NCBI RefSeq assembly: GCF_018350175.1
Contig: NC_058368.1
Coordinates: 63,552,001-63,616,000, forward strand
Length of the DNA: 64,000 bases
Source: Felis catus
Lineage: Eukaryota
Reading direction: 5' to 3'
The notes under the pieces were generated by a model, which saw only the letters and a program-made list of their open reading frames with translations, was not told where the DNA came from and did no database searches. Position numbers and translations under genes: made by a program. Shown here in pieces: positions 22,558 through 63,365 of the stretch (its first letter is position 1; every line of letters begins with the position of its first letter).

Positions 22558-22636
22558 GTGTGCTTACTTAACTGCTGCCCCAATACTTAGGGGCAGTAAG
22601 TTACTGCACGTTATTGGGGAGTGCAGTAAGGCACAC
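22558..22636. repeat. Nested inverted-repeat (multi-hairpin) element
   Basis: Four complementary segment pairs of 6-9 bp within 79 bp; see findings. Confidence 0.7.
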
Positions 22637-29376: not shown

Positions 29377-29965
29377 TGTTCTAACCACCTCCTATTGAGC
29401 CCGTACTTTGAGATGGTCCAACACGTGACAATGGACAGGTAAGATTCACAGCAGCTTATTAGTCACATATACTCATAGTCCAGGGGAAGAGAACACCACA
29501 AAGCACTCAGGGCCCCAGAAGTTGTACCTGAGAGCAGAGTGAACCTGTGGGAAGCAGGCTTGACAGACAGGAGGGTGAGGTGACCTTTGGTTCTCCAGGA
29601 AGGACAAAGGGAGATCTGTTAGGTTGAAGATAAGGTGGGATGGAGCTGGTCTGGCTGTCGGGGGAGTTAGCCAGGGTCAGAGCCTTTCTTGCTGGTGGTG
29701 GGTGGGGAGATCATATCTGGCAACAGCAGAACTCATATCTAAGCCTTTGGGACCCTACAAGGCTCAAAGATGTCGAGGCAACACATGAAATTTTAGTCCT
29801 GACGATACCATTCTCACGACTGAAAGTTTCGTGGAGGAACAAAGGAGGAGCAAGTAGTACCTCAGCCATCTACTGAGGAAGGCGCTTTTGGGGTCAGTGT
29901 CAGAGCCACTTTTGGGTCTCTGGACCTCTATAAAGATGAGATCAAGCTGGCTGTACACAAGGAAC
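29377..29965 (-). mobile_element. Ancient solo LTR (ERVL, MER73/74-like; family uncertain)
   Basis: Reverse strand has 'gagtatatgtgactaataagctgc' polyA-signal region and ends ...gttagaaCA. Confidence 0.45.
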
Positions 29966-30034
29966 AGCATTAAGTACCAGTGCCTTATATGGTAGGTTGA
30001 GTCAAGGAGCCAGAAACAGGGACCTGTTTTGTCA

Positions 30035-31715: not shown

Positions 31716-33078
31716 TCATGGTCATTCTTCTTGTTCTTCTCGTAGATACATATATAGCTGACTTCCAAGCCACCTTTCCATGTTTGGTGTCTAGAGATGA
31801 AGGAATTCATGGGGAAGTTCCCCCCCTGCCCCACTCAGGATACATATATAAAGCTTTGCTTGAAGTCCTTGAATTTAAAAGCAGCTATTTTTTTTTTCAA
31901 TTCTCATCTATTAAGAGAGCTTCTCCAAAAAACACACAAAAAACTACTATTCATGCAATTGATGTCAAAAGCCAAGTGAGCACTATTTTACTGAAGAAGT
32001 ATTTCAGCCATTTCCCTGGAATGGTTTTAAAGCAAGCAATCTACTGCTTGAAAGTGCTGCCTTTGATATCAAATGGTCATTAAAAGTCCCATGACACTTA
32101 ACTACTGCTTAAAATTATTCATCTCTATCTCTTGGCAAGGGTTCAAATTTGAGATTAAATTCCCTTTAAGTGGCAGAGGCATTCATAGTCCCCCCTGCCT
32201 GATGCTTTTAAGTAGTTTTGTTTTACTGGAGGAGTACCACCTTCAGATGCTTGTAGATGAAGAGACACTTGTCACTCACAGGCTTAGCACTGAGTCAATC
32301 ACATTCAGAAAATGCACATGACCCATTGGTTTCTGCTTTCTAATGCATTCTTTCTGTAAGTTGTAAATTGACAAAATTCCTTTGTCATTTTTAAATCACT
32401 TAAAGTCTTCATTTTTCTATCTTTCTTTTTAGAATCTCCCCTAAGCACTCTTATCTTAGAAGTTCTTTGAAAAATGTTTTAAAACAATTCCAGAAGTGAT
32501 AAAGCGCAGAGGGCCCATATGGATACAAAGTAATGAAGTAAAATACGATGCTAAAGGTTGATGAGAGAATAAACTGGACTTTACTGTGATGATAAGAACC
32601 TGATAAGGTCTGAATGTAATTCTTACGACTTCTAAATTCTTTCAGAGAATCATAGCTAATGTTACAGAAAAATGTTCTAAAGTAGTAACATAAACCAATT
32701 CTCATGTACACTCTTAAAACCCTATAAATGCTATCAAGTCTTCAATTGGGATCTCAACTGTAAAGTTTTTGCCTTTTGTACTGTACCTAGATCCCATTTT
32801 GCGCAATTTCGATACAAATTCCCATGTACTGAAGACCTTGACTTATAGTCAAATATTTCATCGTACTTCCAGTTGGTGTTCCTCATTTCTTATCTTCTCT
32901 GAGCCTCTTCCCACATTCGCTCTTTTTTTCATCAGACCGTTGTTCCATGGAAAGGCCTGGGAGAACGCGGCCCCCGTTTCGTTTTGCTTCCTTGCTCCAG
33001 GCAGCGCCGCTCTGAGGTCGGCCCCGCGTGGGCCGGCATTGACAGAGGAAAGGCGGGTGCGGCCTGCGGCCGCGCGCA

Positions 33079-33133
33079 GGGGGCGGGGCGTGGGGCGGAA
33101 CCTGAGGCGGGGCGGAACGTGCAGGGGCGGGGC
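33079..33133 (+). promoter_or_regulatory. GPC5: Cluster of Sp/KLF GC boxes (TATA-less core promoter; G-quadruplex-capable)
   Basis: ggggcggggc, ggggcgtgg, ggggcgga, ggcggggcgg, ggggcggggc in tandem ~400 bp upstream of the ATG. Confidence 0.8.
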
Positions 33134-33523
33134 TTGCCCGCAGAGCGCGGCAGGCGAGCGCGTCTCAGGTTGGCTGCTCCTGGCTGAGCCCGCGGCAACC
33201 CCGGCGGCGGCCAGAGCCAGATGCTCGCGGGCTTTGTGGGCTTCAGGCGTTTTCCTCAGTGGTGCAGCGCCAACTCTCTCCCGCCGGATAGGGAGACCTG
33301 GCGGCGCTCTGCTCGAGAACTCGTATCTCAGCCTCCGAGCTCCTCCGGAGAAAGCCAAGTGCCACCAGGTGAAGCCGGTGTCCCAGAACAGCCCCGGAAC
33401 CTCTGCCGCCAGATTGCACCTTTTGAGAACCGCGACCGCCGAGCGTTTTCCAGCGCTTGCAACGCAAGGCGCGCGGGGACAGTTGGGTCCACTACGTGGG
33501 AAGGGGCGACTAGGACACTGATG

Positions 33524-33686
33524 ATGGATGCACAGACCTGGCGCGCGGGATGTTGCTGTCTCCTCCTTCTGGCTCTCGTTGGGTCTACTCGGAGCGAGGG
33601 CGTGCAGAGCTGCGAAGAAGTTCGGAAACTTTTCCAGTGGCGCCTGGTGGGAGCTGTCAAGGGGCTGCCGGATTCGCCGCGGGCAG
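33524..33686 (+). CDS. GPC5: Glypican-5 coding exon 1 (signal peptide and N-terminus), 163 nt, phase-1 donor
   Basis: MDAQTWRAGCCCLLLLALVGSTRSEGVQSCEEVRKLFQWRLVGAVKGLPDSPRA(G) matches the mammalian GPC5 N-terminus; Kozak ATGatgG; donor CAG|gtaagg. Confidence 0.97.
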
Positions 33687-33906
33687 GTAAGGCGCGGCGG
33701 GCAGGCTCTGGGCGGCGCGCCAGCGCTGGGCGGCGCGCCGGGGCGAGGGCCGGGGGCGTCCTGAGCTCAGAGCCCGCGCTCCTCAAGCCTCTGGGGGTGG
33801 CCCTTCGTGGGAAGATGACCTTTCAGGCACTCCGGCCGGGCAAGGTGAATCCGGGGGAGGCCTCGGGGAGGGGTGAGGGGGTGGTAAGCTCGGCGTGAAC
33901 ATCCCG

Positions 33907-33929
33907 AGCGCAGCGCAGCGCAGCGCAGC
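33907..33929. repeat. Short (CAGCG)n pentamer repeat in the CpG island
   Basis: agcgcagcgcagcgcagcgcagc. Confidence 0.85.
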
Positions 33930-36900
33930 TGCGGGGACACCCAGACTACGCCTGCGGCTAAGCTGGGCTCTGGGCGTTTGCCGCCCGCGCTGGTTCCCGT
34001 AGTCTCTGCTGGTGCGTTGCGAGAGGTCAGCAAAGCTGGGGGCAGAGCGGCCTGCGTTTCTGTTCCGAGTGGGAATTTCACCACTGCCCCGCCGGGGGGC
34101 CTCGGTTTGCTGCTGTCTCCGGTGGACCAAGTTGGCTTGGTAGCTCCAAGTTTGCTACTAAAAATACAAACCGGTGTTCTTCTCCTTTGCTGGAGTATGG
34201 GACATTGAGAAGGGCAGCCGTCTCCTCTTTAATTAGGACTCGGACCCTGTACACCTGCACTGGCGTGACCCTTAGCTGCCTCTGTGCCCTGGCACCGAGC
34301 CCTCCTTGGGGAACCTGCACTAAGTACCCAGTGTGTCTCTCAGACGACTGGGTAGTGTCGACGCCTGAAAGACGTGACGGCAACAGGCGATCAAAACTGA
34401 ATGTATCGGGAAGTCACTAAACATGGATGAGACACATACCAGAGATTGAAGAGGAAAGAATACCTTGAGTGTAGCCAGTGTAGAGTCTGCTTCTTGTAAG
34501 GCTGTTTGCCTGCACCTTTACCCCCTGCTCCCCACCCGTACCGCGCAGATTTCCTTCTGATGCTGGGATTTCCAGTTTACCTTTGGTTTGGAAGATCAGG
34601 TCTTAGTTGTCAAATGCAATAGTAGGTGTCTGAAGCTACGATTTTACTGGAGCAATGCACCCTGCCTATGAAGGCAAGACGCAGACGAGTGCCGTGAGTT
34701 TATGGGTTGAATAAAGAATTTATGGAGGATGCTTGGTTCTAAAATACGTCCCCTGGCTATGTTTTCAGGGTGAAGCGACTTGCTCTTAGCGCTATGGATG
34801 GAACTGTAACTATTTTGCTTTATTGCTTTGCTGTTTGTGAACTCAGTTCTCCCCTCATCCTGCAAGGAAAATCTGGGCATTGGGGAACCCTAAGTCCATT
34901 TTAGTTTACATGGCCAGTCTTTTATATTTGAAATATTTCAAGTATTTTTTGAATGCCTGTTCAGTACAAGGTGCTTTTTCTATACTACTTGAAACAAAAT
35001 AGTTGATATTCTCAGCTTAGGGCAGTTCTTTCCTCAAACAATAGTACCCCCTTATAAGCCCATTCTCGTATTTCAGTGCATTCTTCTTATTAAAAAAAAA
35101 AATAAAAAGCTAAACCTCAGGTATCAGTAGCTAATACCGCTGAAGTGGGTCTTTGTGTTGGTGGAGGGGGATAGGGCGAAGGCATTGAGCTTATGAAACC
35201 GTCACCTGCATTATTAGATGTTGTTCCCCAAATGCCTTAATTTTGGCTGATACGTTCAGGAAACGTTGACAGCTCCCCAGTAAAGGCCTTGATTTCACCG
35301 CCCTTCTTAATGTCTCAGTATTCCTGGTACCTGCTGAATGCAACACATTGATTAGCTGTTACATTCCTAGAACTTTGTGTATTTCATGTCTTTTGAAGAG
35401 GAAGTTTCTAGGGTATCAATCACTGGCATACCTTGTAACGGGGATGTGAGGGGAAACTGAAGCTGTGCCTTATAGAGAAGGAAATGGTGTCCTTATTTGC
35501 ATTTGATACATACATATGACCCCCCCCCCCAAAAAAAAAGAGCCAGGATGGCAAGCACCTTCTTTTCTGAGCCATTCTGGATTGTTTCCCCATTGCTAGT
35601 ACATTTCTTCATCTGTGGCTTAATGAGATGGAGGAATCCTAGCAGTACAGATGCCGGGGGCTGTTCAGGATTACACTCTTGAGGACATCAGTGTTGCTGG
35701 TGGGAAGAAGGGCTAAATTCCTTTCATAATTGCATTAAGAAAAGTCACATGAAAGTATTATTTTGAATTAGAATCATCTTGATTAAAACCATTCTTGTCT
35801 CCAAATTGTTAGCCATTGTTTTATTTGAATAGGTAAATGAAATATTAAACTATTTCTTTTGACATTGCTACTTCTCTCCCGCTATAACAAACTCATTCCC
35901 AAACTGAGTAAAGCACACGTACTACATGCTTCATAACTGCTTTTCCTTATTTTTGTATTTATGTATGATCTGTAACGTTTAGCGTGATTGAGTATAACAG
36001 CTGGGTATCCGATTTTCTAACAGCGTCCTCAAGCTCAAGAGAAAACAATAGTTAATGTAAGTAGTCATTTCCGTGTAAGAATACAAATGTTAATATTCCT
36101 TGTAATAAATGTATTTATTTGGCACATGGGCTTTCACTCACTAAAGCTGGTACATTTCAATTTGATACTCGTTTTTTTTGAAAGTTAATCTTTTTTTAGT
36201 GCTTTCTTCATTTACTGTCCACAAGTGGTTAATTCCTGAGATGTCTAGCCCAAATGCCATTTTTATAATAATAGCAGGTAGAACAGCTTTTTAGTTTCTT
36301 CCTATATTTGCGACTTTTACATCTTCTGAAAACTATGTTACCCAATTTGAAATTATTAAAATGGTGAGAACAGCCATTCAAGTTGTTTCTCAGATTCTCC
36401 TCACCTTTGTTCTTTACTCTGCTCCAATTCTTTTAAGCCTATTGAGCTCCTAAGGATGTTGGATGAGAAATGTAAAAAAGGAGAGAAGATGTAAATGTGA
36501 TTAGAATTACAGATTTCCCTGTGTTCTGATTTTATTTCCTAAGTAGTAGACAAGGTGCCCTTTGCTCTTGTTTATTTTATTCAGAAAAAAAAAAACAACA
36601 ACAAACTTAGTGAAAGTGTCTTTTAAAGGTCCTTTGATTTTCATTTTATTTACTGGGGAGGAGGGATAATGCTTTTACATTGAGATTCTCTTCCCACATG
36701 CATTGTTCACACTTGCATTATTTCCCTGTTTTAAGAAGGTATTTCAGAAAGGAGAAGCTTATAAAAAAATCCAAGACTACCTTCAGGTAATTTATATACC
36801 AACTGGTTTTTGAACAGTGGATGTTCATTGGTACAAGGAGTAGTTTGTGAAAGAACTTTTTCTTGGTAACTTTTGGTTATAAATGGGATAATAAAAATAA

Positions 36901-39328: not shown

Positions 39329-39953
39329 TTACTTTCTATGTTTGATAAAAGCACCTTCTAAGTCTATAACATTTGTTTTTGTTATTAACTGGTATAACAC
39401 CAAAAGGAAAATTCCAGCAGATGCCTCTCCTAAGCAGAAATGATGCATAAATCAGCGGCCTCTCAGTATAACTTGAAGAAGCCATAAACCTGTTTTGGTA
39501 AAAATGAGGTCATGAGAGACTTTGGTCATATCCTTCATTGCAACAGATTGTCTGTGGGTGTGATATCTGACCTACTTGGTTAAGTAACAATAGCTTTACT
39601 TTTAGTAGAGAATAGTCATTTTCCATATCTACCTTTCTCTTGTAAAAACCTGACCTTCAGCTAGAAGAAAAGACAATAGCAATTGTGTCCTCAGTTCTTC
39701 CTCTTTTCAGCTTTAGAAATTTCAAATTTCACTAATGTCTCTGTTAAAACCATCCTAAATTGATTAGTCATTCTTCTATGAATCACAATAAATAGGACGG
39801 CTTTTTTTTTTTTTTTAAAGTTTATTTATTTATTTATTTATTTAGAGAGAGTGAGCGTGCAAGCAGGGGGAGGGGCAGAGAGAGAGAGAATCCCAAGCTG
39901 ACTCTGAAGATAGTGGTTTGAACTCATGAAGTGCAAGATCATGACCTGAGCTA

Positions 39954-40172
39954 GGGCCCCTGGGTGGCTCAGTCAGTTAGGTGTCCGACTTCGGCTCAGG
40001 TCATGATCTCACGGTCTGTGAGTTCGACCCTGCGTCGGGCTCTGTGCTGACAGCTCAGAGCCTGGAGCCCGTTTCAGATTCTGTGTCTCCCTCTTTCTCT
40101 GCCCCTCCCCTGTTCATGCTCTATCTCTCTCTGTCTCAAAAATAAATAAACATTTAAAAAAAAATTTAAAAA
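39954..40172 (+). mobile_element. Nested SINEC_Fc
   Basis: 19-bp TSD aagatcatgacctgagcta (39935-39953, 40173-40191). Confidence 0.95.
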
Positions 40173-40211
40173 AAGATCATGACCTGAGCTAAAATCAAGA
40201 GTTGAACACTT

Positions 40212-40437
40212 TAAAAAAAAAAAAAATTTTTTTTAACGTTTATTTATTTTTGAGACAGAGAGAGACAGAGCATGAACGGGGGAGGGTCAGAGAGAGAGGG
40301 AGACACAGAATCTGAAACAGGCTCCAGGCTCTGAGCGGTCAGCACAGAGCCCGACGCGAGACTCGAACTCACGGACCGTGAGATCATGACCTGAGCCAAA
40401 GTCGGACGCCCAACCGACTGAGCCACCCAGGTGCCCC
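40212..40437 (-). mobile_element. Nested SINEC_Fc
   Basis: 15-bp TSD aagagttgaacactt (40197-40211, 40438-40452). Confidence 0.95.
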
Positions 40438-40524
40438 AAGAGTTGAACACTTAACCGACTGAGCCACCCAGGTGCCCTGATAGGACAGCTTTTTAAAAAA
40501 GTTATTATATTCTATTCTTTTAAA

Positions 40525-44440: not shown

Positions 44441-46448
44441 TACAGATCAATACTTAGTTATTTCTAATGTAAGAGAGGGACTCAAAGCAGTAATACCAAT
44501 TTTAAGTATATTCCTCTGCTAGACTATAGGCTATTTGAGAGTGAGATCTGTGATTGATGTGTCTTAATGTTCTGTGATTAGCCTAAAATTCATAAATAAA
44601 TTTTGACTTGTAGAATTAATCTCATATGGTACTTACATACCAGACTCAATTCATTGTGTTTACTTACGTGTTCTATGCTTAATGTTAATAGAATAAGAAA
44701 TGTAGAATAAGAAATGTAGAAGGTGAAGTTTTTAAAAAATATACTGACCTGGGCTCAGTTGGGTTGTTGATTAAGTTATTTTCGAGGAGTTAATATTTTC
44801 TTATGTACCTCTGCCATAACTTTCTATAAAGTGACCCAGCCCTTTTAAATTTAAATTTAAAGGAGTTTTTATTTGCATTATCCAACATTTTTGAAAACAG
44901 AGTAAATGATTGCCAAACAAATGTCCAGAAGAAGGTTTCCTCAAATGTCCTGCAAAGAAAGGAAGATTATTTAATATTTAAGAAATTAATTTACGCAGTT
45001 TTTATATCATGTAGACAGTGACTGATGTGACTTAGAGCATTAACTCATCTATTTTTGGGAGAATGGAGAAAAATAAATGTGCCTAAATATAATTTATATT
45101 TGACTCTGGATTGGTTGGTTTGTGTTTCATTTAATTTCTTTTTCTTTCTTTTTTCTGTTTTTTTGTTTGTTTTCCTTTCTGTGAGGAATTAATAGTAAGG
45201 AACTAGAAAATGATTTCAGTTTTTCTATCTCCCACCCTCCCACCCTTGTTAATTCCATGTTGGCAGTAAAGCACATCTCACTTGTCTGTGGAATTATTCC
45301 TGAGCTGGGAAGATTGTTTATTAAAAGATCCCAGCTTGGGGTCCAGACTCCATGCAGACCAAGTAGAGAGACCATAGCCTTTCAGAACAAGCAAACGAAT
45401 AATTGCTGCTAAACCACAAAACCATATATGGTAGCAGGTATAATCTGTCTCCAAAGTATTTCCAACAATTCCTGTTTTAGAAATACCTAGTCATTAGATC
45501 TCTTTTACTATCTTAGAAAAAAAATTTTTTTTCTGTATCAAGTGTAGTTCGTTATTTATTTAGGATGTGTCACAAGAGGTATTAGGAAATTGTACCTAAA
45601 TAGAAGGATTATTTAAGTCATTGCTAATGAGACATGCACACTTTGGTATGGTTCAGCTGTGAACTTAAATATGTTTCAAATGCAGTCATATTTAGAACCT
45701 AGTAAACATTTCTTGTTTTATAATTTGTTTATTACTCTTATTAGGGTAATGGGTTTGAATTACTAATTTTCTTCTTCTGTGCTGTGATAACCACATTTAT
45801 TTTAGCTTTTATAAATCTTTATAGGCAATATAATTAATCTTTGCAGCTATCTTTTTAGAGCTCATAGGCTTTTCTTTTCTTTGTCTTACAGTTTCAAGGG
45901 ATGTTAGTTCACGATTTTTTCAATATTCTTTTTGGGAGAGGGTAAGAACTGAGAAGGAGTCCGATAACACGCACAGACTTTGCTTTCAGTTGATCAAAGG
46001 AATGTAAACATTATTTCTGGATGTCCTTGTTCATTACATATATATTCTTTAAATGGAATATTGTCAATATTAAATTACCTGTTCAGATTTATTTACTTTT
46101 TGAACAACTCTCTTATTTAGTAAGGTTGTAGCAAGTTACATTTGGCTCATTTTCTTTTGATCATTGAAAATGTCTGTGTTTAATGAGCTGAAACTGAAGT
46201 AGGTCAATAAAATGAAGAGATTAACGGTCTGTTCTCACCAGGCTTAGAATACATTCCACTCTGGGGGGAAAAGTCATTTTTAACAAAGTTTTTTTTTTTT
46301 TTTATCAACTTAAAAGGTAAAGGAAATAGGAATAACATTGAAAGAGTGAGGAATTCATGAGCTATTTGTCAGGTAAAAGGTATGAGGATACCTTTTGTAT
46401 AGTTAAGAGCTTTAGTTACAAAACAAAACTACATTTTACTTAAAAAAG

Positions 46449-48849: not shown

Positions 48850-49660
48850 GGGTAAAAAAAACCCTATGGCATTTCATTTCTAATGCACAGCTACAGAAAG
48901 GTTAGCATCCTTAATCACAAATGAGCTCTTATAAATTGGTAACAAAGACACTAATATTTCCAGGGAAATGAAAAAAGAACATAAAGAGGAAATTCAAATG
49001 ATATAAATGACTAATAAGGATATGGGTGATGCTTGAGCTCAACATTAACAAAGGAAAACTAATTTCTTATGAATATCACATTGTCAAAATTAAAAATAGT
49101 GACATCTAATGCTCCTGTGATTGGAGGAAATAGAGTACTCTCATCTACAAATACTGAGCAGGAAGACTGATGAAGACTGGCTGTACATTCAGGGCGAATT
49201 CTGCAGTTATCACTCAAAATTTGAATTTTGGTTGCCCTTTGCCTGGCGATTCCAATTTATAGGAAAGTATTCCTACAAACTAATTGGATATATTTAAACA
49301 TATATATATATATATATATTATATATATTATAATATATATATATAATATATTATATATGTATATTTTCATTGCACAGAAAAAACTTGCAGGTAATGTAAA
49401 TGTCTGTTAATATCTATTGAATGATAAATTATGGATAACCATGTGGACACTTAAACCAGGAGAGGAAGGCTATCCAACCAACATTAGGACAAATGACTTA
49501 CAGCATTTATGAAAGGAAAAAGCAAACTATAGCCTGATGTGCCTGCAGCCTCCAAAATACGTATATTTGAGTTATCACTTTATGTATGAATGTACCCCAA
49601 AACAAAGTACACAAAGTGCCAGCAATAGTAGATAACCTTGAGTAAAATTAGGGGGAAAAC
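48850..49660 (+). mobile_element. Ancient L1M (L1ME-like) 3' region, broken at the inverted repeat
   Basis: 'gttagcatccttaat...gagctcttataaat', 'ccctttgcctggcgattcca', 'taaatgtctgttaata...taaattatgga'. Confidence 0.65.
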
Positions 49661-50145
49661 AGAAGCACGGAGGTATGGCTGAGAGGGAACACCAGGTCTG
49701 TGCTCAGCTGGGGGCTGGGCAGGTTACGGGGGGGGGGGGCGGGGGGGTCGGTGAGCGGTCTGAGAGGATTCCATGCTTGCCAGCTGGCCTGTGACTGTTT
49801 CATGGGTGCTGACAGAAGCCAAGAGACTCACGGAGCAGCAAGTAAGCAGCATGAGCGTGACGACGGTCACCCTGCTCCTCCGGGGGCTCGACATGGATGC
49901 CCGCACATGTTGCACCACAGGGGAGGACTGTGGGTCATGGAGGGCAAGTGGCTTTCCCACTTCTAGAGCAAGCTGAACCGATCCTGCTCTTTGCCCTGGG
50001 AGAAGACTGTCCCTCGAGGCTGTTAGTTGCAAACACAACCCTGAGAAATGGCCCAGGTAAAGGGTAGTCGGGGCCTTGCAGTTTTGGCATACTCAGTAAA
50101 AACACACAGGACGTCAGGGAAGGTGGATTACCTCTCCCAACAGGG
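49652..50145 (-). repeat. Left arm of long inverted repeat (LTR40-like solo LTR plus L2 flank)
   Basis: Reverse complement of 51375-51843; mirrored ORFs appear in the track. Confidence 0.97.
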
Positions 50146-51374
50146 AGGCAAGTTAGGGAGAGTGGAGATCAAGAGACTGAAACTAGAAAAGCAGGCAGGA
50201 ATTCTATCACTGAGAAATTTAAATGCAATATGTGGGAGTTTGAGCTTTTGCCGTAAGCATTGGGAAGATGTTCTAAGATGTGTATCAAACACTGCTGGGA
50301 TTGTGTGTATAAATTGAACAGCTTTCCTAGGACCTTCTCCTTTTCCTTCGCCCATCTAGCTCATCCTTATAATTAGTACAAACACTGCCAATTCTATCAG
50401 GTGATCCTCTTCCTGGAGTTTTTTAATTTGGAGCCAAGAGAGTTGGGTCAGTTTCTCCCTTTGGAGGGAAGATATATGGCAGTCATATTTTCTGCTATCT
50501 GAAGAAGGCTGCTGTGCAGCAGGAAAAAACTAAAGCCACAGAGTAAGAGATTTGTAAACATTCTAGTCTTGATTTTCCTTTCTTTAGCCCATCTTGTTCC
50601 CTGCCCCTCCTTTGTCTTCAATGTCCTTTGGGATGTCTCAATATGCTTCCAATGCATGCCTATTTCAGTTTAGGACAGTTTTAGTTAGGCTTCTTGAATC
50701 TTGAATCTGAAAGTGTCAACTAGTTTAGAAGGGTAGTGTTCTAAATCCTAGAGATTTCTCTCTAGGAACACTACCTTGGAAGCAGTATGCAACATGGCTT
50801 CCAACAAAGAGAAAACTGGAAACAAGACCAATAGACTGTCACAATAGTTAAGAGAGAAATGATGTTCCATTTGTCCTTACAGACATGGCCGTGATTAGGT
50901 CCTCTGATTCAGGGATACCTTTAGAAATAATTCTTGGCTCCGAAGTTAGTTTAGAGCACCTTAGTAGTTCCAAGGATGATCTGTGAGGAACCATTTTACA
51001 TATGGTAGCTCAGGATCAAAAACTGACCTTTCCAAATGGGGAGAAAGCCTATGACACCAAAGAAGAAGGGGCCAGATCACGAAGTGTGTGATGGGCTACA
51101 GGAAAGTCAGGATCATTAGGATAAAGGACAGTGGGATTGACTGTTTTCATTGCTGCCCTTGGACTCAAGCCCAGGAGCCCTGAAACATTATTACACGGAG
51201 AAGGTCATGATAGAAGAGTTGCAAGGGCTTCACCTCAGTGCTCCTGTGTAAATCACATACACAATCACATACTTACCACAGGGTAATTAAAAATTCTAAT
51301 TCATTAAAAAGTCATCTTTGTCAAGAATTCAAAAGACATAGAAATTTGTGAAGTGTATTTCTCTTATATTTTCC

Positions 51375-51843
51375 CCCTGTTGGGAGAGGTAATCCACCTT
51401 CCCTGATGTCCTGTACTGCAAGGCCCCGACTACCCTTTACCTGGGCCATTTCTCAGGGTTGTGTTTGCAACTAACAGCCTCGAGGGACAGTCTTCTCCCA
51501 GGGCAAAGAGCAGGATCGGTTCAGCTTGCTCTAGAAGTGGGAAAGCCACTTGCCCTCCATGACCCACAGTCCTCCCCTGTGGTGCAACATGTGCGGGCGT
51601 CCATGTCGAGCCCCCGGAGGAGCAGGGTGACCGTTGTCACGCTCATGCTGCTTACTTGCTGCTCCGTGAGTCTCTTGGCTTCTGTCAGCACCCATGAAAC
51701 AGTCACAGGCCAGCTGGCAAGCATGGAATCCTCTCAGACCGCTCACCACCCCCCCCCCCCCCCTCCGGTAACCTGCCCAGCCCCCAGCTGAGCACAGACC
51801 TGGTGTTCCCTCTCAGCCATACCTCCGTGCTTCTGTTTTCCCC
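51375..51843 (+). repeat. Right arm of long inverted repeat; LTR40-like ERVL LTR at ~51378-51770
   Basis: Starts TGTTGGGAG; 'gccatttctcagggttgtgtttgca', 'ttctgtcagcacccatgaaac' and 'tctcagacc' match LTR40-family motifs. Confidence 0.95.
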
Positions 51844-52312
51844 AATGAAACACACCTTTTCATGTTTTCATACTTCTTACCTTCTCTTCCTTCAGTCTTG
51901 TCTGACCAGTCTTAGTTCAAGTTTGTTTTGCTACTCATCAGCTTTGTGAACTTAGGTAAATTTAACCATAATAAACTCAATTTCTTATTTATAAACTAGT
52001 AATATGTTGTATCTTATGTTTTTTTGTTTGTTGGTAAAGAGACTATAAACCACCTACTTAAAAGTCTCCTGATTCCCTCTCTTATCTCTCCAAGAAAAGG
52101 AAATCATTTCTTCCCCTGTGCTCTCACAGAAATTAATATATACTTCTTTCATAGCACTTTGTCACATTAATTAAATTTTTTACAAATGTGTTTCCCCCTA
52201 GACTGAGCCCTGAAGGGACAAAACTACGTTCAGCCCTTCTTGGTATCCTTAATAACTACCATAATGTCTTGTATGGAACAGGTGTTTAATCAATATTTGA
52301 TGAATTCATTTG
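51790..52312 (+). mobile_element. LINE-2 3' end with an internal MIR-like piece
   Basis: 'tttccccctagactgagccctgaaggg...aggtgtttaatcaatatttgatgaatt' is an L2 terminus. Confidence 0.65.
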
Positions 52313-52878
52313 ATTTATTAATCAAAATAAAGAGCAGGAAATTACTGTGTAATTTAGCACAGGTGGAAGGAAGACTCAGCGTCTCCTAAATAGTCCTCTG
52401 AGAAGGGATGCTCCAAGCCATTCGCGCGACTGGGCTGCCTACCCCTGCCCACAGCATAGAAATGTATACATTTATCGGTCCTTGAGACGCTGTTTTTATG
52501 AGTTCTGCTTAAGTTGACCTCAAATTTAGTAACTGGCAAACCCAAACTGTGTTTTGCTGTGTACTATTTCTAGTAGCTGTCTAATTAGTGTTCTTAGCAA
52601 AAGTGCCTGACTAGCTTGGGAGAAATGCTGCATCCCAAGCACGGATCTTGAAGAGGCATAATACATATTAGCAGATTAAAGCTCTGAGAAACACTACCCT
52701 TGAGAGAATCTATTTATTTGATTTTTAAGAAAAAAATTTATTATATTTTCATAGGGAAGAGGGTTTTTTGACTTAGCTCACTTTTTATCATTCCCCTGGG
52801 ACATTTTTTAACTTAATACCACTTAGAGAAGCCCTTCTTGAAAAAGTGGATGGAGTGGATGGAGAAGACAGATTTGTT

Positions 52879-53033
52879 GGGGTGCCTGGGTGGCTCATTC
52901 GGTTTGGAGCCCAACTTTGGCTCAGGTCATGATCTCACAGTTCATGAGTTTGTGCCCTGTATCGGGCTTTCTGCTGTCAGCTTGGAGCCTGCTTTGGATC
53001 CTCTGTCCCCCTCTGTTTGCCCTTCCTCTGCTG

Positions 53034-53118
<85 letters not shown>

Positions 53119-53130
53119 ACTTAAAAAAAA
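52879..53130 (+). mobile_element. CAN-SINE with (CT)n and (AAAT)n
   Basis: 16-bp TSD agaagacagatttgtt (52863-52878, 53131-53146). Confidence 0.97.
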
Positions 53131-53289
53131 AGAAGACAGATTTGTTAGATACCCAGTTTTTAAAGTAGCTTTCAGAGTAGACGACACTCTGAAAGAAGGA
53201 AGGTGTAACAGTGGGCATGTCAACACGGAGGCGGCTGTGGTTGATCACGGTGGTAACGCACAATAGATGGTCAGCAGCATGGACCCAAA

Positions 53290-54045
53290 TATCACTTGAA
53301 AGAGTGGCGCAGATGAAGATTTGGAGATCGTTAGGCGCATAGGTGAATCTCCAGGAGTGGAAGATCACTCAGGGTCAAAACTGAGAGGCAAAACCTGGGG
53401 CAACACAAGTAATTAGAAACAAGGAGAAAGAAGCTAATCCAGTGGTATTCTGAAAGGCAAGGAAATTGGGGAGTAAATCATGTCAGATCCCACAAAGAGG
53501 TCAAGAGTGATTAGAAATGGATGGCTATCTCTTGGATTTGACAACTCGGAGTTCACCAGTTATCCAGATGTTTTCATTTACCAAGAAGGGCTGAGGTCAG
53601 AATTGAGACTACAGGATTGATGGGTGGATGAAGTGGAAATAATCAAAGCAGACCACTCTTTCCAGAGGGTTACTTCTGCAGAGAGAAAAAGCTTGAGTAT
53701 AATTGGTCATTGTTGTGTATATGTTTGTTTTATAGGTTACACGCTTCACGAACATGTCTACCCTTAAGAAAGGGATGGATGAGCCTAGAAGAGGTGACCG
53801 ATTAAGGCAGGCATTAGTCACATGGGCCTTTTTGGCTGTTAAGGACTTTGAACTTCATCCCAAGATCAATAGAAAGCCATGGGAAATTTTACAGCCTAAG
53901 TGTTACGATTTGCGTTTTTAAAAGACCCTTCTTGTCTATAGGGTATCCACTTAAAACTTCTATTCTAGGTGCAAGTGGTCGTAGTACAGATGGCAAGAAG
54001 TAAATTTAAAATTATTTAAGAGGTAGAATCAATATGATTTTGACT
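53290..54045 (-). mobile_element. LINE-2 fragments
   Basis: 'ttaaggactttgaacttcatcc...aagccatggga', 'ttggatttgacaac', 'gaggtagaatcaatatgattt'. Confidence 0.6.
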
Positions 54046-54983
54046 TCTTTGTTTTATTTCTTTTGCAACAAGAATCAACTAAGGTACTTCCCTTGTATAT
54101 TTTTAAGTTGTACATCCTGCTGAAATCAGTCCCGAAAGACAAGAAGACCATACTGACCTTGAATTCATGGCTGTTTGAATAACCTTAATTATACTGCATG
54201 TTGTGTGTGGCTATTCATATGACATATGCTTCTTACTGCATCGTTAATGTATTCTTATGCTGTAGGGCCCTTCTAACTGAGTGAGTTATACAACTCCTGG
54301 AGGAGCTAATAATTTGAACCAGAAGAGGTCAAGCCATTCAGTGTCTTAATTGTTTTCTGTTACCTATAGGTTTCTATTTTATGTATTTATATCATCACTC
54401 TTCCAATACTAGTTTAAATCAATGCACACAGGTCCATATGTTCTGAACATAAGAGTCGGAAAAACAGTATGAATCCAGTATGAAAAATAAGATTATGAAA
54501 AATAACATGAAATCAGATATAAGGTTAAGATGTGAAATACATATATTTTAACAAAATGAGGCATCAGCACCTGTGAGCTGGGCTGAACATTTTGGCTCTG
54601 AGTTTCCTATTAGCCATGATAAAGAATGATGCAATTAGTTGCATGGCTTAGAGCAGTTATTAGAGAGAAAGAACAAGTAATGTGTAAGATGTTTTCCACA
54701 GGTCCTCCTAGAATAGATTATGCAATCATATAAATAATTTAGGCCAGTAAGCAAGATGTCTTTAACTGAAGAGAAGACCTATGTGGAATATTTGAACTGT
54801 GGTCTGCCTGGGCGGGAAGAGACCATATAGAGGAGACTCTTGCCTTTAATAAGGAATAAAAAAGTATCCGACAATAAAGTGTTAGATTGCAATTAAGATA
54901 GTGTTAGAATACAAGAAATGATCAGGTCAAATTTTAAAGATGCAAATGATTTTCCTGGCGATCATTACCTATGGAATGATTTT

Positions 54984-55178
54984 TTTTTTCTTTAGAGAGA
55001 GAGAGAGCAAATGGAAAGAGGCAGAGGGAGAGAGAGAGAAGGAAAGAGAGAGAATCTTAAGCAGGCTCCACACTCAGTCTGGAGCCCGATGTGTGGCTCG
55101 ATGCCATGACCCTGGGATCATGACCTGAACTGAAATCAAGAGTCAGATGCTCAACTGACTGAACCACCCAGGGGCCCC
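54984..55178 (-). mobile_element. CAN-SINE
   Basis: 17-bp TSD acctatggaatgatttt (54967-54983, 55179-55195). Confidence 0.96.
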
Positions 55179-56429
55179 ACCTATGGAATGATTTTAACAA
55201 GATATAGCAAGTCAGTCTAGCATGCTTATGTAAACAAACCTGGAATTTATGAATTTAAGGAGTATGACCCCCAAGAAAATGCCACTGTCAGTTGTGTAAT
55301 TACAAGACCTTCTTGGGACAAGAAGGACTTCTTTCAGTGGGGTTTATGACAGGAATAGATCATAAAACACAGTGAGCAAAGACTAGCAGAATACAGCTTT
55401 TTCTAGAGACATGGACCAGGTGTTTAGTTACCCCTGCTGGCCATGACTGACACCCCAAGGTTTAGGAGATGCTGGACTTATTGTGGGGGCTGCAGTCTGA
55501 TAAGCACTGGGGAGAAGAAATTTGTTGAAAGTGGAATAAACACTAGGAATATGCCTTAGTTACTAGAATTTAAGTATGAGAGTAAATCAGGACGAGGAAA
55601 GATCTCAAAAGTGTTAAACTGATACAGAATAAATTTTATGGATTTAATTGAACCCTTGACTATGATTCAGTTGATACTAGAATCTGGAGCAAGACGGAGC
55701 CTGTGGGTGGAAATAGGGTGTCTCAGTTGAATCAAGAGCAGGCATCTAAATAGATTGCCAATTTTAAAATGCAGTGTTTATTTTTCATTTGAATGGGATG
55801 TTCCATTATCATGACTGCGTGAGAAGAGAAAAGCAAATATCATTTATTCATAGCCTGCTGTACGCCAGGTACTTGCTAGGATTTTTAATCCATTATTTGA
55901 TTAATTTTAATGTATCTGGATACAATAGAACTTTTCTCTGAGAAATGTAACCAATTTTCAAAATACCATTTATCTATTTTCTTTCTCTGGATTTCAGTGT
56001 TTGGGTTAATACTATTTTAGGTATAGAATCTGCTACTCCATAACTTACCCATTTCCTGGGTGAAATTAGTGTGTTTATTTGCTATATTATTTAATCTCTA
56101 GGAAGAACTTCCTGTTCCTCACTTTTATTCTCTCTATATTCAAAAAATTCAGAAGCTTTTTTCTTTTTGTTGTTAATACTAAATTTTAAGTAGTTCTGAA
56201 GAAACAAAAGCTTATTTGTATATAAAGCTTTTTAGGCACATTTTTTCATGTGCTTGACTGATTTTGAGTTTGTTTTAGAAAAAATTCTTATCTGTAGTAT
56301 GTTCAGTAATCACCTAGTTTACGCACATGTATTTTACTCAAAACAATTTTAGTTATTCTTCAAGTAGTAGACTACTACAGAATGATGAGTGGTTTTCTTT
56401 TCATTCTTTCTTTTCCTGTTTGTCTTAGA

Positions 56430-57070
56430 CAAACACTAATTAGTAGCTGGAGGTACTTGTCCTCAAGTAGCTGACAGTTTAGAAGGAAGATGACATGGAA
56501 TAAAATCATGATGAAATATTTTACATCCTATAGTAGTGAATTGAACAGGGTTGAATAGAGGTCAAAGCAGGGATTGGCTCATCCTGATAGGGACCCTCAG
56601 AGAAACATGAGTTGAATACTGGAAGATGAGAAAGAAGGTTTTTAGTAGAAAGAATTGAGAAGGAGAGGGGTCAAGGGCCTTGTAGCCTGATGTAAAGGTG
56701 TAAAGGCATGGAAATGATGGAAGAAGAACATTATGTGTTCAGAGGATTCCAAGTAATTTAGTATGACTGGAGTTGATGGTGGGATGATGAAGCAAAGTGG
56801 GAGATGAGGCCAAGGTCACTGGCTCTCCCATTGTAGCGTGCAGATCAGAACTTGGAGTGTCCCTTAGCAATTTGCCTCCTTCCCATTGATGATCTGAATG
56901 CGGAGATCTATAGCTCTTTTGTTTTTTGTTTTGTTTTTTGAGAAACACTGTTTTGAAGAGTAGGGACACATGGAGGAATTTTAGACTGGGATGGGACAAT
57001 TGTACTTTGTTAGATTGATCATCCTGGCAACAGTATGAAAGGTGATATGAAACAATGCAAGATTAGAGGA
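56430..57070 (-). mobile_element. LINE-2 fragment
   Basis: 'gtcctcaagtagctgacagtttag...gtgggagatgaggccaagg...gatcatcctggcaacagtatg'. Confidence 0.6.
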
Positions 57071-57414
57071 CTACCTTCTTTAGGGATCAGGCTTAAATGC
57101 TACAACGGGGATCACCGTATATATAAAAGTAAAGACTTTTATTATTATTATTAATTATTATTTTTATTATTTATTATTTACGTAACTTTCTGTAGTTGAA
57201 CATTCCAGGGCTGCAGGGTGTCTCTGACATATTAGACAGTGGCTGCTAAGATTCTTCTGGGAATTGTCAGTGGAAAGGAGGAGGACAATGGCGACGAGAG
57301 AAGTCTAGCATACATATTTTTAAAGAGATTCTTTGAGATTGTGTTTTTTAAAATAAATTTTTAGTATATGTGCTGCTGAAATGAGCACTAAAATAAATTT
57401 TTAATGTTTATTTA

Positions 57415-57629
57415 AAAAAAAATTTTTTTTAATGTTTATTTTTGAGACAGGGAGAGACAGAGCAGGAACGGGGGAGGGGCAGAGAGAGAGGGAGACACAG
57501 AATCGGAAACAGGCTCCAGGCTCTGAGCTGTCAGCCCAGAGCCCGACGCGGGGCTCGAACTCACGGACCGCGAGATCATGACCTGAGCCGAAGTCGGACG
57601 CTTAACCGACTGAGCCACCCAGGCGCCCC
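57415..57629 (-). mobile_element. Young SINEC_Fc inserted in the tail of the next SINE
   Basis: CpG-rich near-consensus body; atgtttattt on both sides. Confidence 0.95.
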
Positions 57630-57630
57630 T

Positions 57631-57840
57631 ATGTTTATTTATTTTTAAGAGAGAGAGAGAGAGACAGACAGAGCATGAGAGGGGGAGGGACAGAGAGAAA
57701 GTGAGACCCAGAATCTGAAGCAGGCTCCAAACTCTGAGCTGTCAGCATGGAGCCCGACCTGGGGCTCAGCCTCATAAACCGTGAGATCATGACCTGAGCT
57801 GAAGTTAGACGCTTAACTGACTGAGTCACCCAGGCGCCCC
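57631..57840 (-). mobile_element. CAN-SINE
   Basis: Canonical body. Confidence 0.95.
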
Positions 57841-58224
57841 TGAGATTGTATTTATATACCTTTGGCCTGAATGTAGTCACATGGCCACACCTCAGGCCCA
57901 GGCATAGCCACGCTGATGATCAAGTGTGCCCTTGGGAAGACAGATCAGGCTCCAGGCCTTAATAGTTTACATAGTGCTGTCTGAATGGTGAATTTCAAGG
58001 TCATATCTGTTGGGCACATGATCTGGTCTACAGCACATACAGATGGACCCTGGTGACATCTCACTGCATTAGGAGGGGCCCAGCTGGAGGCTCAGGACAG
58101 GGACACTCTTGCCTGAATTGTAGTACTGTCCCTAAGGAAGTAGCTGGGAGAAAGCCAGAATGTGAAACAAAAAGGAATAAAAGGAAATAATGAAATGAGT
58201 GGGGAACCTAAAGCTAGGGAAAGT

Positions 58225-58628
58225 GTGATGGTTGATTTTATGTATTAATTGGACTGGACCACAGGATGTCCAGTTAGCTGGACATTTGTGGGTGTCTCTG
58301 TGATGATGTGATGATGTTTCCAGAAGACACTAGCATCTAAATTGATGTTCCAGAGCAAAGCAGATGCCTGTCCCCCCTCACCCCCTAGCAAGTGTGGGTG
58401 GGCATCATCCAACCCATTGAGGATCCTAATGGAACAAAAACACCTGGAGGGAGTTTGGATTCTCTCTCTGCCTGACTGCACGAGGGTTCTTGGGCTGGGA
58501 CTTAACACCACTGATACTCTTGGTTGCCAGGCCTTTGGACTCTGACTGCAATTTATTCCACCAGCTTTCCTGACTCTCCAGCTTGCAGCCAGCAGACTCT
58601 GTAACTGCTCAGCCTCCGTATCACATGC
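58225..58628 (+). mobile_element. ERVL LTR (MLT2-like)
   Basis: 'tgtgatggttgattttatgt...gtgggcatcatccaacccattgagg...caggcctttggactc...tctccagcttgcag'. Confidence 0.85.
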
Positions 58629-58629
58629 T

Positions 58630-59218
58630 TCAGCTTACACTGCTGTGTCACAGACCGCCCCAAAAGTCAGTGGTATACAACAACCATTGTGCTCACAGAT
58701 TCTATGGGTCAAGGATCTGAGCAGAGAATGGCATGTTTCTGCATGTTATCTGGGATCTTAGCTGGGGACATTTGAAAGAAAGCTGGGGGTGACTCAATGG
58801 CTGGGGACTGGAATCATCTGCAGGTGACCTTACATGTCTGGTGGTTAGGCTAGTTGAATGATGGGACCTCAGCTGGGCATTGCCCGGAAATATCTACACA
58901 TGGGCATTCCATGTGATCCCTACAAGTGGGGTGGTTTGAGGGTCCTCACAGTATGCTGACAGGGTTCTAAGAGCAAGTGTTTTGGGAGTTAGGACATGGA
59001 AACTGCCAGTTTCGTAAATTCTGGGTCTAGAAACCAGCACAGATTCACTTCATACATATAATCTGGATTCTGTGATTGCATGACAAACATATATATATGT
59101 CAAGCAGATATATGTGTGTATGTATATATATATATGTTTGTCAAGCAAATATATATATATCTATTCATATACATATTCAAATATATTCAGTTATATATTC
59201 AAATATATCTATGTATAT

Positions 59219-59295
<77 letters not shown>

Positions 59296-59425
59296 TATAC
59301 TTATTTATTTATTTATTTATTTGTCAAGCAATCACAGAATCCAGACTCAAGCAGTGGGGACATAGATCTTACCTCTTAATGGGAAGAGTGTTAGAGAATT
59401 TTGGAGCCATGTTTTAAAACTGCCA
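58630..59425 (-). mobile_element. MaLR LTR (MLT1F/G-like) interrupted by an AT-rich microsatellite
   Basis: 'gctcacagattctatgggtcaagga...ggctggggactggaatcatctg...gccatgttttaaaactgcca'. Confidence 0.75.
59088..59320. repeat. Compound (TA)n/(CA)n/(TTTA)n microsatellite
   Basis: Direct reading. Confidence 0.95.
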
Positions 59426-59942
59426 GAGAGATACATGGAAACACCTAGAACTCAATTTCCCTGCATAATAAAAATGGAGGAAATATTTTGGTTTGTTGAA
59501 AGATAATAAAGAAGGAAGACTAAGTAGGCAGAACCGCATGGCAGGATGGCTGAGGGATAGAGAGATAAGAATGTTTAATATATATTTGTGGTGGTACCTC
59601 TGCTCTGAAAACTTCTTAAGTCTTTAGTACATTGTATCACACAGATACGACTGCTTTCTCTGTCTCTGTGTATGTGTGTATTGATGTGATGAAGAGCTAG
59701 GGAAATGAAGGAGAGGAATTGATGGGATTGGGTTATTATGATTTGGTGCAGGAGGGGGAGAGAGAAAGGGTCAGCTTTAGGAGGTAAAATGCAGGCCAGG
59801 GGATGTTTTGTGTGTCCACTAATTAGTTTGGACTTCAACAGTGCTGTAGCAATTGGCACTCCCATGTGAAACGAGAAGTCAATTGCTCCTATAGTCATTT
59901 GCCATTTTTTTGGTCACTGTTGTCCAGAACTGTACCCTGGTT

Positions 59943-59945
<3 letters not shown>

Positions 59946-59991
<46 letters not shown>
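59946..59991. repeat. (GT)n microsatellite
   Basis: Direct reading. Confidence 0.97.
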
Positions 59992-59993
<2 letters not shown>

Positions 59994-60508
59994 CTGGGAT
60001 TGACCCAGTATTGAACTTCTGATTATCTTAAACTAATCAATATAATTCATGTTTGGTCACAGTAATTATTCAGGTATGGATACAGCGCAGCCAAAGGCAA
60101 TAAAATATGAATGAAGTTTGCTTGGACTTCTGAGAGAGAGAGAGAGGCTTATTCTTCTATAAGGACTACCTGAAGTTACATTTTTTCTTCTCCTGAGTGA
60201 TGGGGACTGAATCACAGCAGCCATTCTTTTACTTGAGGCTAAAGTGTCTGGGGGTGTTCCTTATGGGGAAAACTGAGGATGAAGCAAAACCTATGGAGGA
60301 TAGAGTGGAGAGACAGAGAGGAAGCAAGTCTTCTGTGAAATTGTTTAAGCAGACCTGTTAAAGTTCCCTAAAATTATATTTAATTTATACTTTTAGTCTT
60401 TTGTACCAATTGAATCCCCTATGAGTTTTTGCCAATTTGAGTTGGATTTATTTATTTTTGTTCACAAATATCTGTGTGACACAGTTCACTTTTTATTTTA
60501 TTTAAACA

Positions 60509-60891
60509 ATTTTTTTAATGTTTATTTATTTTTGAGAGAGACAGAGTGTGAGCAGAGGAGGGGCAGAGAGAAAGGGAGACACAGAATCCGAAGCAGGCTC
60601 CAGGCTCTGAGCTGTCAGCACAGAGCCTGATGTGGGCTGAACCCACAAACTGCAAGATCATGACTGAGCCACAGATGCCTCTAAAGTTTATTTATTTTGG
60701 GGAGAGAGAGAGAGAACATGTAAGCATGCACTCACATGTGTGTGAGTAGGAGAGGGGCAGAGAGAATGGGAGAGAGAATCCCAAGCAGGCTCTGTGCTGT
60801 CAGCACAGGCTCGAACCCACGAACTGCAAGATCATGACCTGAGCTGAAATCAGGAGTCTGACGCTTAACCAGTGAGCCACCCACGCACCCC
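60509..60891 (-). mobile_element. Two tandem CAN-SINEs (~60509-60680, ~60686-60891)
   Basis: Two bodies; ctaaagtttattt / ctagagtttattt flank the second. Confidence 0.92.
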
Positions 60892-61245
60892 TAGAGTTTA
60901 TTTTTAATGCATTGTTTATTTCTAGGCATACAGAAAAGCCCTGGTTAGTGGGTTGGGAGGGTTTTGAGTGTCAGTTACCATTCTGTACCCAAATCCACTC
61001 TGCCTGCTCACCCACAATATCTAAGTCTGGCTTATGTCACTAGGGACTTTTCCATGGTAATGTAGTCAGTATTCCTGAGATCTTTCTATTTAACTTATTG
61101 ATCAAACCATCTGTTCTTGCTATCCCCTTTATTAGAGTATTAGTGTGGGCACTTTGGCTGCAAGAAGCACAGACTAATTTGTTCTGTTTCAAAAAATAAT
61201 TTATTAGCCTTTAGATGTATCTCATGAAATCCCAAATTTATAGGG

Positions 61246-61304
61246 GATATGATATGATATTATATGATATGATATGATATGATATGATATGATATGATAT
61301 GATA
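61246..61304. repeat. (GATAT)n pentanucleotide microsatellite
   Basis: Direct reading, one interrupted unit. Confidence 0.95.
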
Positions 61305-63365
61305 GGAAGGATTTGGGCCCCAGAAAAGGACTAAAGCAGGAACTATAGAGAGCTAACAGTTTTCTTTCATTTCTCTACACTGCACGTTCTGCCCTTTTTC
61401 CTCCATGGTGAGATAGAATGGGCCCTTCACTCCGAAATTATATATAAACCAGCTCTGTTCGTGAACAGACTAGACTTTTTCTGTGTTCCAATTCTACATT
61501 CTCAGATGAAACAATCTAGTTGCTTCTGTTTGAGTCACATACTCACATTCAGTTCAACAGACTCTAATCAGATGTGATGTCCTATGACACACACGTGCTC
61601 TCAGGGGCCTCCCTCATGGAGGTATTGATGGAGCAGTTCTCAGAGGAAAGAGATTATTTTGAGGTGGGCTGATCCCACGGGAATCGTATGCTGAGAAGTC
61701 ATTTTGGCCTGAGCTACATTTATGAATGAGAATTTCTTCCTCCCTTTTCCTAACCCCACCACTGGCAAGGTCTTGAGCCCATATCCATCAGTGGTTGCAA
61801 ATAGAGAAGTAATGCTTAATTTTTTGGGCCAGGTGATTCTGAATCTCTGCTTCAGCCTGGCTTGGAGGGGCTGTAATGCATGGGGCTGGTTTCCTTGAGA
61901 GAAATAGTGCAGATAGTCTTTTTAGGTGAGCTGGTGAAAGAGCAGTAGGAAAATTTGGGGGCTCTTTTAAAACTGAGGGGGTGAGGCTGCAACTCATTTT
62001 GTTTCACACTCAAGTAGCAGGCTGTGTATATATGCTAACAATATATAGGCCTTCTGTCTCCTGAGCTGGTTAACGTGTTGCAGAACGTTGACTTCTAATT
62101 CATGACTCAAGTGTGAGAAAGCATTCTGTTTAGCATACCTTTCTCTGCTTTATAGACATAGAATATATACATCCATATTAGAAATGCTTGTTTTTGGTTA
62201 TAAAAGTAAAGATTTAAGTGTGTGATTTTGTGTAAATATTGATAAACTATGGCTAGAAACACAGCTCTGAGTGTATCATCTGTTGAAGGATCAACGATGC
62301 CATTTATATATATGGGAGACAGCATTACTGTTCTACCTGTGAATATTATGTTGACCCTATTTGTCTAAATTTGTAGATTGCCAAATGTTACTTATTTTAT
62401 ATTGAATCTAGAACCAAAAAAAACCCCCTCATAATAGCCAAAATAATACTCTTGTGATAGCCAAAATACTTAATACTCTTCTGAAAAAAATTTTGTTTTT
62501 ATATTTAAATGAATAATATCAATATATACTTTTATAGGACAGTGCCTGTATTCCATAAAATGGATGAATCTATAAGTTCCAGCGATACATTATTATGAGG
62601 AATATTTGTAAAAAGGTACAGTAATAACAAATGCCATTTTAAAAGGTTTATTGAACCAGTTTTTAATGTCCTCAGTGATATGCTTATCCTGAATCTATAT
62701 TTAAAACTATCTCATTAATTTTAAGCCGTGAAAGTGCCTTCTTAGGTTTCTTAGAAAATATTTATGTGCAGGTAAGGGGAAAAGGGAGGAGACTAATGCT
62801 TTATTGAAGATCTTTTGTTCCAGACACTGTGCTAGTTGTGTACAACACCCTGGGACACGAGGCAAAGGTGGTCGTTATCCTGTTGGGACTTGAAGTCTCT
62901 GGAGAAAGAAAGAAATAAAATATAATCAATTAAATGCACAAAAGCGAATGTTTGGGTAAGCACCAGGGTGCAGGCCAATACAAGGGACTGTTAGCGCTTC
63001 AGTCATCAACAGGAAATGGACAGGAATGGACAGCAAAACTGTTAAGTCTTAGCACAACAGCTTTCAGTGTGTTTAAATGACCTTGTAACTATTTATCAGG
63101 AATAGGACCCCATATGCAATGTGATTGTTCCTGTAGTCACTGTCTAATTAGAGTCAAGAAAACAACCAAAATGGTAGCCCAGATGATTACAGATCTTAGG
63201 AAAATACAGACTTTCTGGAATGTGGCCACTTTCCCCAACAGAACTAATCTGTCCCTTCCTGAAAGCAAGATGTGGTGCCATCATCTTTTCCTTTTCCCCT
63301 CCCCCACCTCCTGTCTTTCTACCTCATTGACAACTCCTTCTCTGTGAAGGTTCTTTTGAAACGCT

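Follow-up and report, generated by a model that had tools for sequence, protein, structure and literature searches.

The near-identical inverted repeat characterized here, which lies downstream of a glypican exon in the cat, best fits the footprint of an inversion, beyond being a substrate for one. Self-BLAST of the whole 64-kb stretch of DNA that was analyzed (hereafter, the window) yielded a single match between positions 49652-50145 and 51843-51375, spanning 494 columns with 93.9% identity including gaps, and these arms (49652-50145/51375-51843) were the longest of the 160 inverted pairs in the window. Judging from the letters at its junctions, the repeat was likely born together with an inversion of its spacer, and we lean, with less assurance, toward arms that are old and GC-biased. 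The joint reading, in which a two-switch inversion at the origin was followed by old GC-biased conversion, is put forward tentatively, at slightly below an even chance. The repeat and its surroundings comprise the following features.

33521 to 33686, plus strand: coding part of glypican exon 1, located within a CpG island; the inverted repeat lies 16 kb downstream.

49650 to 49659, minus strand: 10-mer with the minus-strand reading T4C5T at the outer junction of the left arm, the sole minus-strand copy in 64 kb and, by its letters, putatively one half of the empty target site.

49652 to 50145, minus strand: left arm, 494 bp, 58.9% GC, 16 CpG, which from the junction letters would be the newer copy.

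49728 to 49749, plus strand: G-tract with a G-quadruplex consensus, containing four arm differences and mirrored by a C-tract at 51749-51763.

50083 to 50105, plus strand: 23 nt present in the left arm only and missing from the right arm in both self-BLAST and global alignment.

50146 to 51374, no strand assigned: spacer, 1229 bp, 40.4% GC, 6 CpG, apparently inverted relative to the pre-duplication order, as suggested by the junctions and a presumed LINE resemblance.

50146 to 50270, minus strand: left end of the spacer, 42% GC, presumably part of a minus-strand L2-like LINE.

51369 to 51378, plus strand: right end of the spacer with the first arm bases, carrying the same 10-mer in its sole plus-strand copy in 64 kb; it would be the second half of the empty site and reach 4 nt into the start of the arm.

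51375 to 51843, plus strand: right arm, 469 bp, 59.5% GC, 13 CpG, which by the same letters would occupy the original position.

51378 to 51750, plus strand: LTR-like part of the arm, beginning with TG, mirrored at ~49750-50142 on the minus strand and presumably LTR40-like (ERV3, HERVL40); neither arm has a polyadenylation signal (AATAAA or ATTAAA) in the LTR orientation, a loss expected in a decayed copy.

51765 to 51843, plus strand: tail of the arm outside the LTR-like part, 62% GC across 51770-51835, which we assume to be L2-like.

51836 to 51843, plus strand: outer end of the arm, with an 8-nt microhomology (T4C4) to the target site.

51844 to 52310, plus strand: right flank, 35% GC in two measured pieces, presumably plus-strand L2-like pieces parted by a MIR-like insert.

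The 55-aa product of the exon (33521-33685) matched the start of the Pfam Glypican family with an E value of 0.0022 and a score of 17.3 bits, below the cut-off of 26.4. We take this exon to belong to GPC5 and exon 2 to lie outside the window, a crude motif scan of which revealed no convincing exon 2; an Atlas search gave no usable match. Of the earlier placement of the repeat in intron 1 of GPC5, the glypican exon was thus recovered at this sub-threshold level, and the name GPC5 itself is presumptive. In the CpG island (32600-34400) that holds this exon, a pair of in-frame ATGs is found at 33521; just inside the glypican intron lies a GC-rich repeat of 18 bp (33694-33738). No effect of the inverted repeat on the glypican gene was in evidence, and the locus is most likely neutral.

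The arms were shown to exceed ~99% identity, with five substitutions in ~469 aligned bases plus three indels. Three of the five substitutions were transitions, at 49862, 49898 and 50113 in the global alignment, each of which is a CpG in one arm; the same alignment placed the other two, at 49728 and 49731, together with 1-nt indels at 49740 and 49749, in or beside the G-tract. The blocks identical between the arms measured 76, 112, 35, 184 and 32 bp, the longest being 184 bp. These alignments bore out the preliminary description, which had listed three CpG transitions, the 23-nt indel and differences in the G-tract. It had further claimed that such arms are too alike for two independently aged insertions and require duplication and/or conversion; this necessity stood, and the claim was changed in that the junctions point to an inversion of the spacer at birth. 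As a source, a DNA transposon bearing long terminal repeats was ruled out, the outer ends having no flanking direct repeat. Elsewhere in the window, perfect tandem duplications of 48 bp (14969-15064), 20 bp (22162-22201) and 14 bp (44689-44721) were observed, as were two SINE-like copies arranged head to tail at 57444-57841 with a period of 211 and 83% matches.

The junction letters carry the case for an inversion. The right end of the spacer together with the arm start shared 10 nt with the left outer junction and 8 nt with its right counterpart, and the left end of the spacer shared only 3-4 nt with either outer junction; among 20,000 random pairs, anchored matches of at least 10 nt occurred in 0.03% and those of at least 8 nt in 0.2%. 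Since the 10-mer occurs once per strand and at both junctions, the right end of the spacer would most likely have adjoined the left flank at one time. Both new junctions carried microhomology, of 8 nt and 4 nt, jointly amounting to the window-unique 10-nt match, and two switches at these microhomologies yield the present sequence without leftover letters. The margin of inversion over no inversion was two letters, corresponding to roughly 7- to 14-fold.

In the mechanism that we propose, the ancestral order would have been left flank, reversed spacer, single arm and right flank. At a G5A4 site, synthesis would have switched away from its template and resumed on the opposite strand ~1.7 kb off, primed by the 8-nt microhomology, whereupon the arm and then the spacer would have been copied backwards, with a return at the arm start via the 4-nt microhomology; a single event could in this manner give both the new left arm and the inverted spacer, and the present orientation of the spacer is probably already the derived one. 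One event would be more economical than an insertion followed by a flip, the letters at this locus fitting both equally. The inner arm end lies within 4 nt of the LTR-like start, a coincidence that the template-switch model counts as chance. An interrupted (AT)n tract was also noted at 49288-49364, 290 bp left of the inverted repeat. Such tracts can be breakage-prone, and this one is a possible trigger for a template switch.

Presumed repeat families would point in the same direction as the junctions. One L2-like LINE presumably extends, with the LTR interposed, from the left end of the spacer through the arm tail to the right flank, and because it is collinear only with the spacer turned round, it would support the inversion of the spacer. 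When this continuity was sought within the window, nhmmer gave a best E value of 0.3, local alignments of the LINE pieces stood at the null level for five of the six, and the best p value among 24 targeted alignments was 0.027, which was reached for both orientation alternatives; the segment at 52149-52317 aligned weakly to two other sites in the window. A Pfam search for the LINE continuity was negative, and Rfam over 51780-52450 gave five matches, all at chance level. Long runs of positive GC skew at 19000-30000 and 53000-62000 are probably LINE-rich.

Two other origins for the arms were weighed against the two-switch inversion. A templated insertion without inversion, in which the right arm would be the new copy in a T4C4 site and the orientation of the spacer would be ancestral, is also consistent with the letters, given that an 8-nt direct repeat bounds the right arm (51369-51376 and 51836-51843, with 12 of 14 letters matching). 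The left outer junction, however, shows the longer match (10 nt); the 8-mer is common to both arms and hence no mark of the right arm as new; the second overlap is only 2 nt, leaving two matching letters to chance; and the presumed LINE continuity enters the right flank. We regard this insertion as quite unlikely. The LTR-like part itself starts with TG at 51378 and its 3' end enters the C-tract, the best candidate for a 5-bp target duplication matching at four of five positions; LTR40 is placed under ERV3 in the available text of PMC5753468. If the LTR had inserted twice, independently and in opposite orientations, and one copy had later overwritten the other along a tract reaching ~95 bp beyond the LTR end, the position of the inner arm ends within 4 nt of the LTR-like start would be accounted for, but a rare old family would have had to insert twice within 1.3 kb when no further copy was detectable in the 64 kb, and the 10-nt link between the spacer end and the left outer junction would stay unexplained. 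Such a double insertion is accordingly rated as very improbable.

The composition of the arms bears on what followed the inversion. Their GC contents (58.9% and 59.5%) were far above those of the flanks (35.4% and 36.1%) and the spacer (40.4%), and none of 8115 unmasked 390-bp windows outside the CpG island reached the GC level of the arm (maximum 0.531). In line with the remark in the preliminary description that the arms retain many CpGs, their observed/expected CpG ratios were 0.39 and 0.33 (16 and 13 CpGs), versus 0.12 in the spacer and 0.19 in the unmasked background. All three substitutions outside the G-tract were CpG transitions, for which the probability would be ~4e-4 if substitutions were uniform, and the TpG+CpA observed/expected ratio was 1.4 in the arms versus 1.14-1.17 nearby. 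These transitions and the TpG/CpA excess ruled out a CpG-island-like protection of the arms; the arm CpGs are therefore mutable, not simply protected.

The best GC change points were 49651 and 50074 for the left arm, 51373 and 51830 for the right arm, with support intervals including all four arm ends. Steps at the arm ends are mostly expected even without conversion, as an LTR edge or the border of a pasted copy, and the only informative step is the one that the original copy shows at its outer end. At this end, the non-LTR tail had 41 G or C letters of 66, compared with 20 of 57 in the adjoining right flank and 167 of 453 across three nearby LINE-like pieces that belong to neither arm (p 1.4e-4 for the latter comparison). 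Since the GC of the tail was matched by 110 of 10,026 unmasked 70-bp windows and an equally large step was found at 88 of 16,541 positions, this step favors conversion in a suggestive manner only.

We further modeled the composition by forward simulation of random sequences (30 settings of 60 runs each, with rates chosen by us and an old methylated element assumed), setting as the target a GC content of at least 0.555 together with a CpG observed/expected ratio of at least 0.36. In 12 settings, recent duplication or unbiased conversion never reached the target (0 of 60 runs per setting), and a mid-age duplication did so in one of six settings (2% of runs). With an old duplication, the target was reached in five of six settings at a bias of 0.8 (7-58% of runs) and in one of six at the published bias of 0.7 (18%). 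Biased conversion was thus the sole tested model that fitted, but under these assumptions it would need a GC-rich start or a strong bias.

Taken with the composition, these assumption-laden simulations suggest that GC-rich arms with mutating CpGs belong to an older, conversion-maintained repeat rather than to a fresh copy. Following the two-switch event, the arms, 1.2 kb apart, would have repeatedly corrected one another by gene conversion biased to G/C, which would hold them ~99% identical outside the indel and rich in GC and CpG as their surroundings decayed. The available text of a study of primate X palindromes gives an equilibrium GC of 60.9% for their arms, to which the arms described here (~59%) come close (PMC8981503). 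Two statements in the same text count against the conversion reading, namely, that 29 My of biased conversion lifts GC by merely 0.7-0.9 points and that GC-rich DNA is proposed to be more apt to form repeats (PMC8981503).

The latter proposal favors instead a recent two-switch origin (about 1-3 My or less) from an already GC-rich piece, with little or no conversion and with arms now drifting apart. Under assumed rates, the three substitutions outside the G-tract correspond to 1.0-2.3 My (95% range 0.2-6.7) since the duplication or the last homogenization, and a single organism appeared among the sequencing-run matches listed, where the best matches filled the list; both points would suit a young repeat. 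Against this, the simulation leads one to expect that decay had brought an old methylated element down to a GC content of ~0.42-0.49 and a CpG observed/expected ratio of ~0.2 before a recent copying, and the arm has its GC step at the outer end; we consider a recent origin unlikely, though its chance is not negligible. The same sequencing matches bear on an assembly or amplification artefact, that is, a chimeric inverted copy. Among the matches listed, at least 20 runs from 10 studies, all of that one organism, carried 0.92-0.93 of 336 words, where the expected loss is 6.2-7.6% of the words for a missing arm and, for two arms that collapsed into a single allele, 4.4-5.6% plus ordinary variation. 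The word share is compatible with one arm or two, and so fits a missing arm as well as two collapsed arms with variation. Amplification chimeras also use microhomology, a further point for the artefact. The preliminary description had, reasonably, cited the arm-specific differences against a misassembly; the CpG transitions and the 23-nt indel follow a mutational and not an error pattern, and a chimera would not account for the outer-end step in GC, making an artefact hardly credible.

That the arms could form a long double-stranded stem in the pre-mRNA, as had been supposed beforehand, was supported by folding, in which a 468-bp duplex of -1081 kcal/mol with a longest helix of 333 bp was predicted within one transcript. 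Two inverted pairs in the same intron, which we take to be SINEs, were predicted at -389 and -326 kcal/mol. Selection for such a stem, through editing, splicing or transcript-level control of the glypican, might keep the arms alike, and the predicted duplex far exceeds those of the SINE pairs. Any inverted duplication, however, folds in this way, and the predicted duplex is thus no evidence of use; moreover, the arm differences are plain CpG transitions and not compensatory pairs, and Rfam at gathering scores gave no match in the 64-kb window, which also counts against selection. We accordingly hold stem selection to be very unlikely. As a separate observation, two young SINE-like copies at 39934-40451 (~39954-40174 on the plus strand and ~40218-40437 on the minus strand), presumably SINEs as well, are placed tail to tail within an older element that is likewise SINE-like; their own target duplications are unswapped, such that this pair has not flipped, and their duplex was predicted at -389 kcal/mol.

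The human GPC5 gene presumably starts on chromosome 13 at a coordinate with the leading digits 9139-9144. In the available text and supplements of a human inversion catalogue, there was no occurrence of the term GPC5 and no chromosome-13 row whose coordinates began with those digits (PMC13629690). Whether the spacer still toggles can be approached by analogy with human inversions, of which the sources cited here are represented by the parts available. In one set of inversions by homologous recombination, three had a single origin, among them the two smallest, with repeats of 654 and 755 bp (10.1101/501981, PMC6748972). HsInv0193, with 418-bp LTR repeats, is regarded as recurrent (PMC13504282), and recurrence has been documented for repeat-flanked inversions generally (PMC3961182). 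Inversions can be mediated by human repeats in the size class of these arms: for repeats of 800 bp or less, 8 of 16 pre-selected candidates were polymorphic, in 70 of 612 rows of Table S1 (PMC13629690). On these analogies, present-day toggling of the spacer is conceivable but, in our estimation, rather doubtful.

In openly readable papers and the main texts of preprints, the topic of GPC5 with inverted repeats and inversions yielded unrelated work, and that of inversions with inverted repeats in felids yielded none; within this literature the locus was undescribed. If the reading of an inversion followed by conversion holds, one small alignable locus joins a self-flanking inversion to the GC-biased conversion that preserves it, and CpG-rich, GC-rich old intronic repeats need not be regulatory. 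Old repeat pieces seem to cross the arm boundaries, so that converted and unconverted parts could be compared in felids for the bias and the limits of the conversion tracts. In its most far-reaching form, which we consider improbable, a gene-free autosomal repeat of 0.5 kb would have been born by inversion tens of My ago and kept by conversion alone across carnivores at a GC equilibrium of ~60%, its spacer toggling within and between species. Such a locus would be a minimal self-maintaining palindrome offering a direct reading of the conversion bias, and it would reveal the smallest repeat that sustains concerted evolution without selection on a gene.

The locus would be a new example of known processes, and is a candidate member of the classes of converted palindromes and recurrent inversions. 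With regard to its conversion, the nearest parallels are the primate X palindromes with GC-biased arm-to-arm conversion and, as cited in the same study, the FLNA-EMD repeat of Caceres 2007 (PMC8981503). With respect to its origin, MMBIR/FoSTeS (PMC2621351), four-point template switches (PMC7954356) and the staggered-break inversions of Drosophila (PMC1885836) are described, in the parts of these sources available, as likewise leaving an inverted duplicate of a once-unique sequence beside an inverted segment, with two junctions of short microhomology, as found here. The four-point events of apes copy up to 128 nt (PMC7954356), whereas ~1.7 kb would have been copied here, a size lying between those of the known template-switch and breakpoint-duplication inversions. 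The microhomology of MMBIR is quoted as 2-5 bp (PMC2621351), compared with 8 and 4 nt here for a copying direction that the junction letters suggest.

Inverted SINEs that serve as ADAR substrates share with this locus a long intronic duplex, which is here predicted from sequence only. As in the small inversions of humans, the repeats provide a substrate for non-allelic homologous recombination, and HsInv0193 (418-bp LTR repeats with a 618-bp spacer), HsInv0061 (654 bp) and HsInv0062 (668 bp) are of the same geometry and size class in the available material (PMC13629690); the cat locus is known from one orientation in one assembly. Finally, the primate X palindromes, as far as the available text describes them, resemble it in having near-identical inverted arms with GC contents above those of the flanks and spacer (PMC8981503). 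Their contrast in GC is 4-5 points and their conversion was established from multi-species alignments (PMC8981503), whereas the repeat described here shows a contrast of ~20 points over a gene-free and presumably autosomal 0.5 kb, where it is composition that points to conversion.
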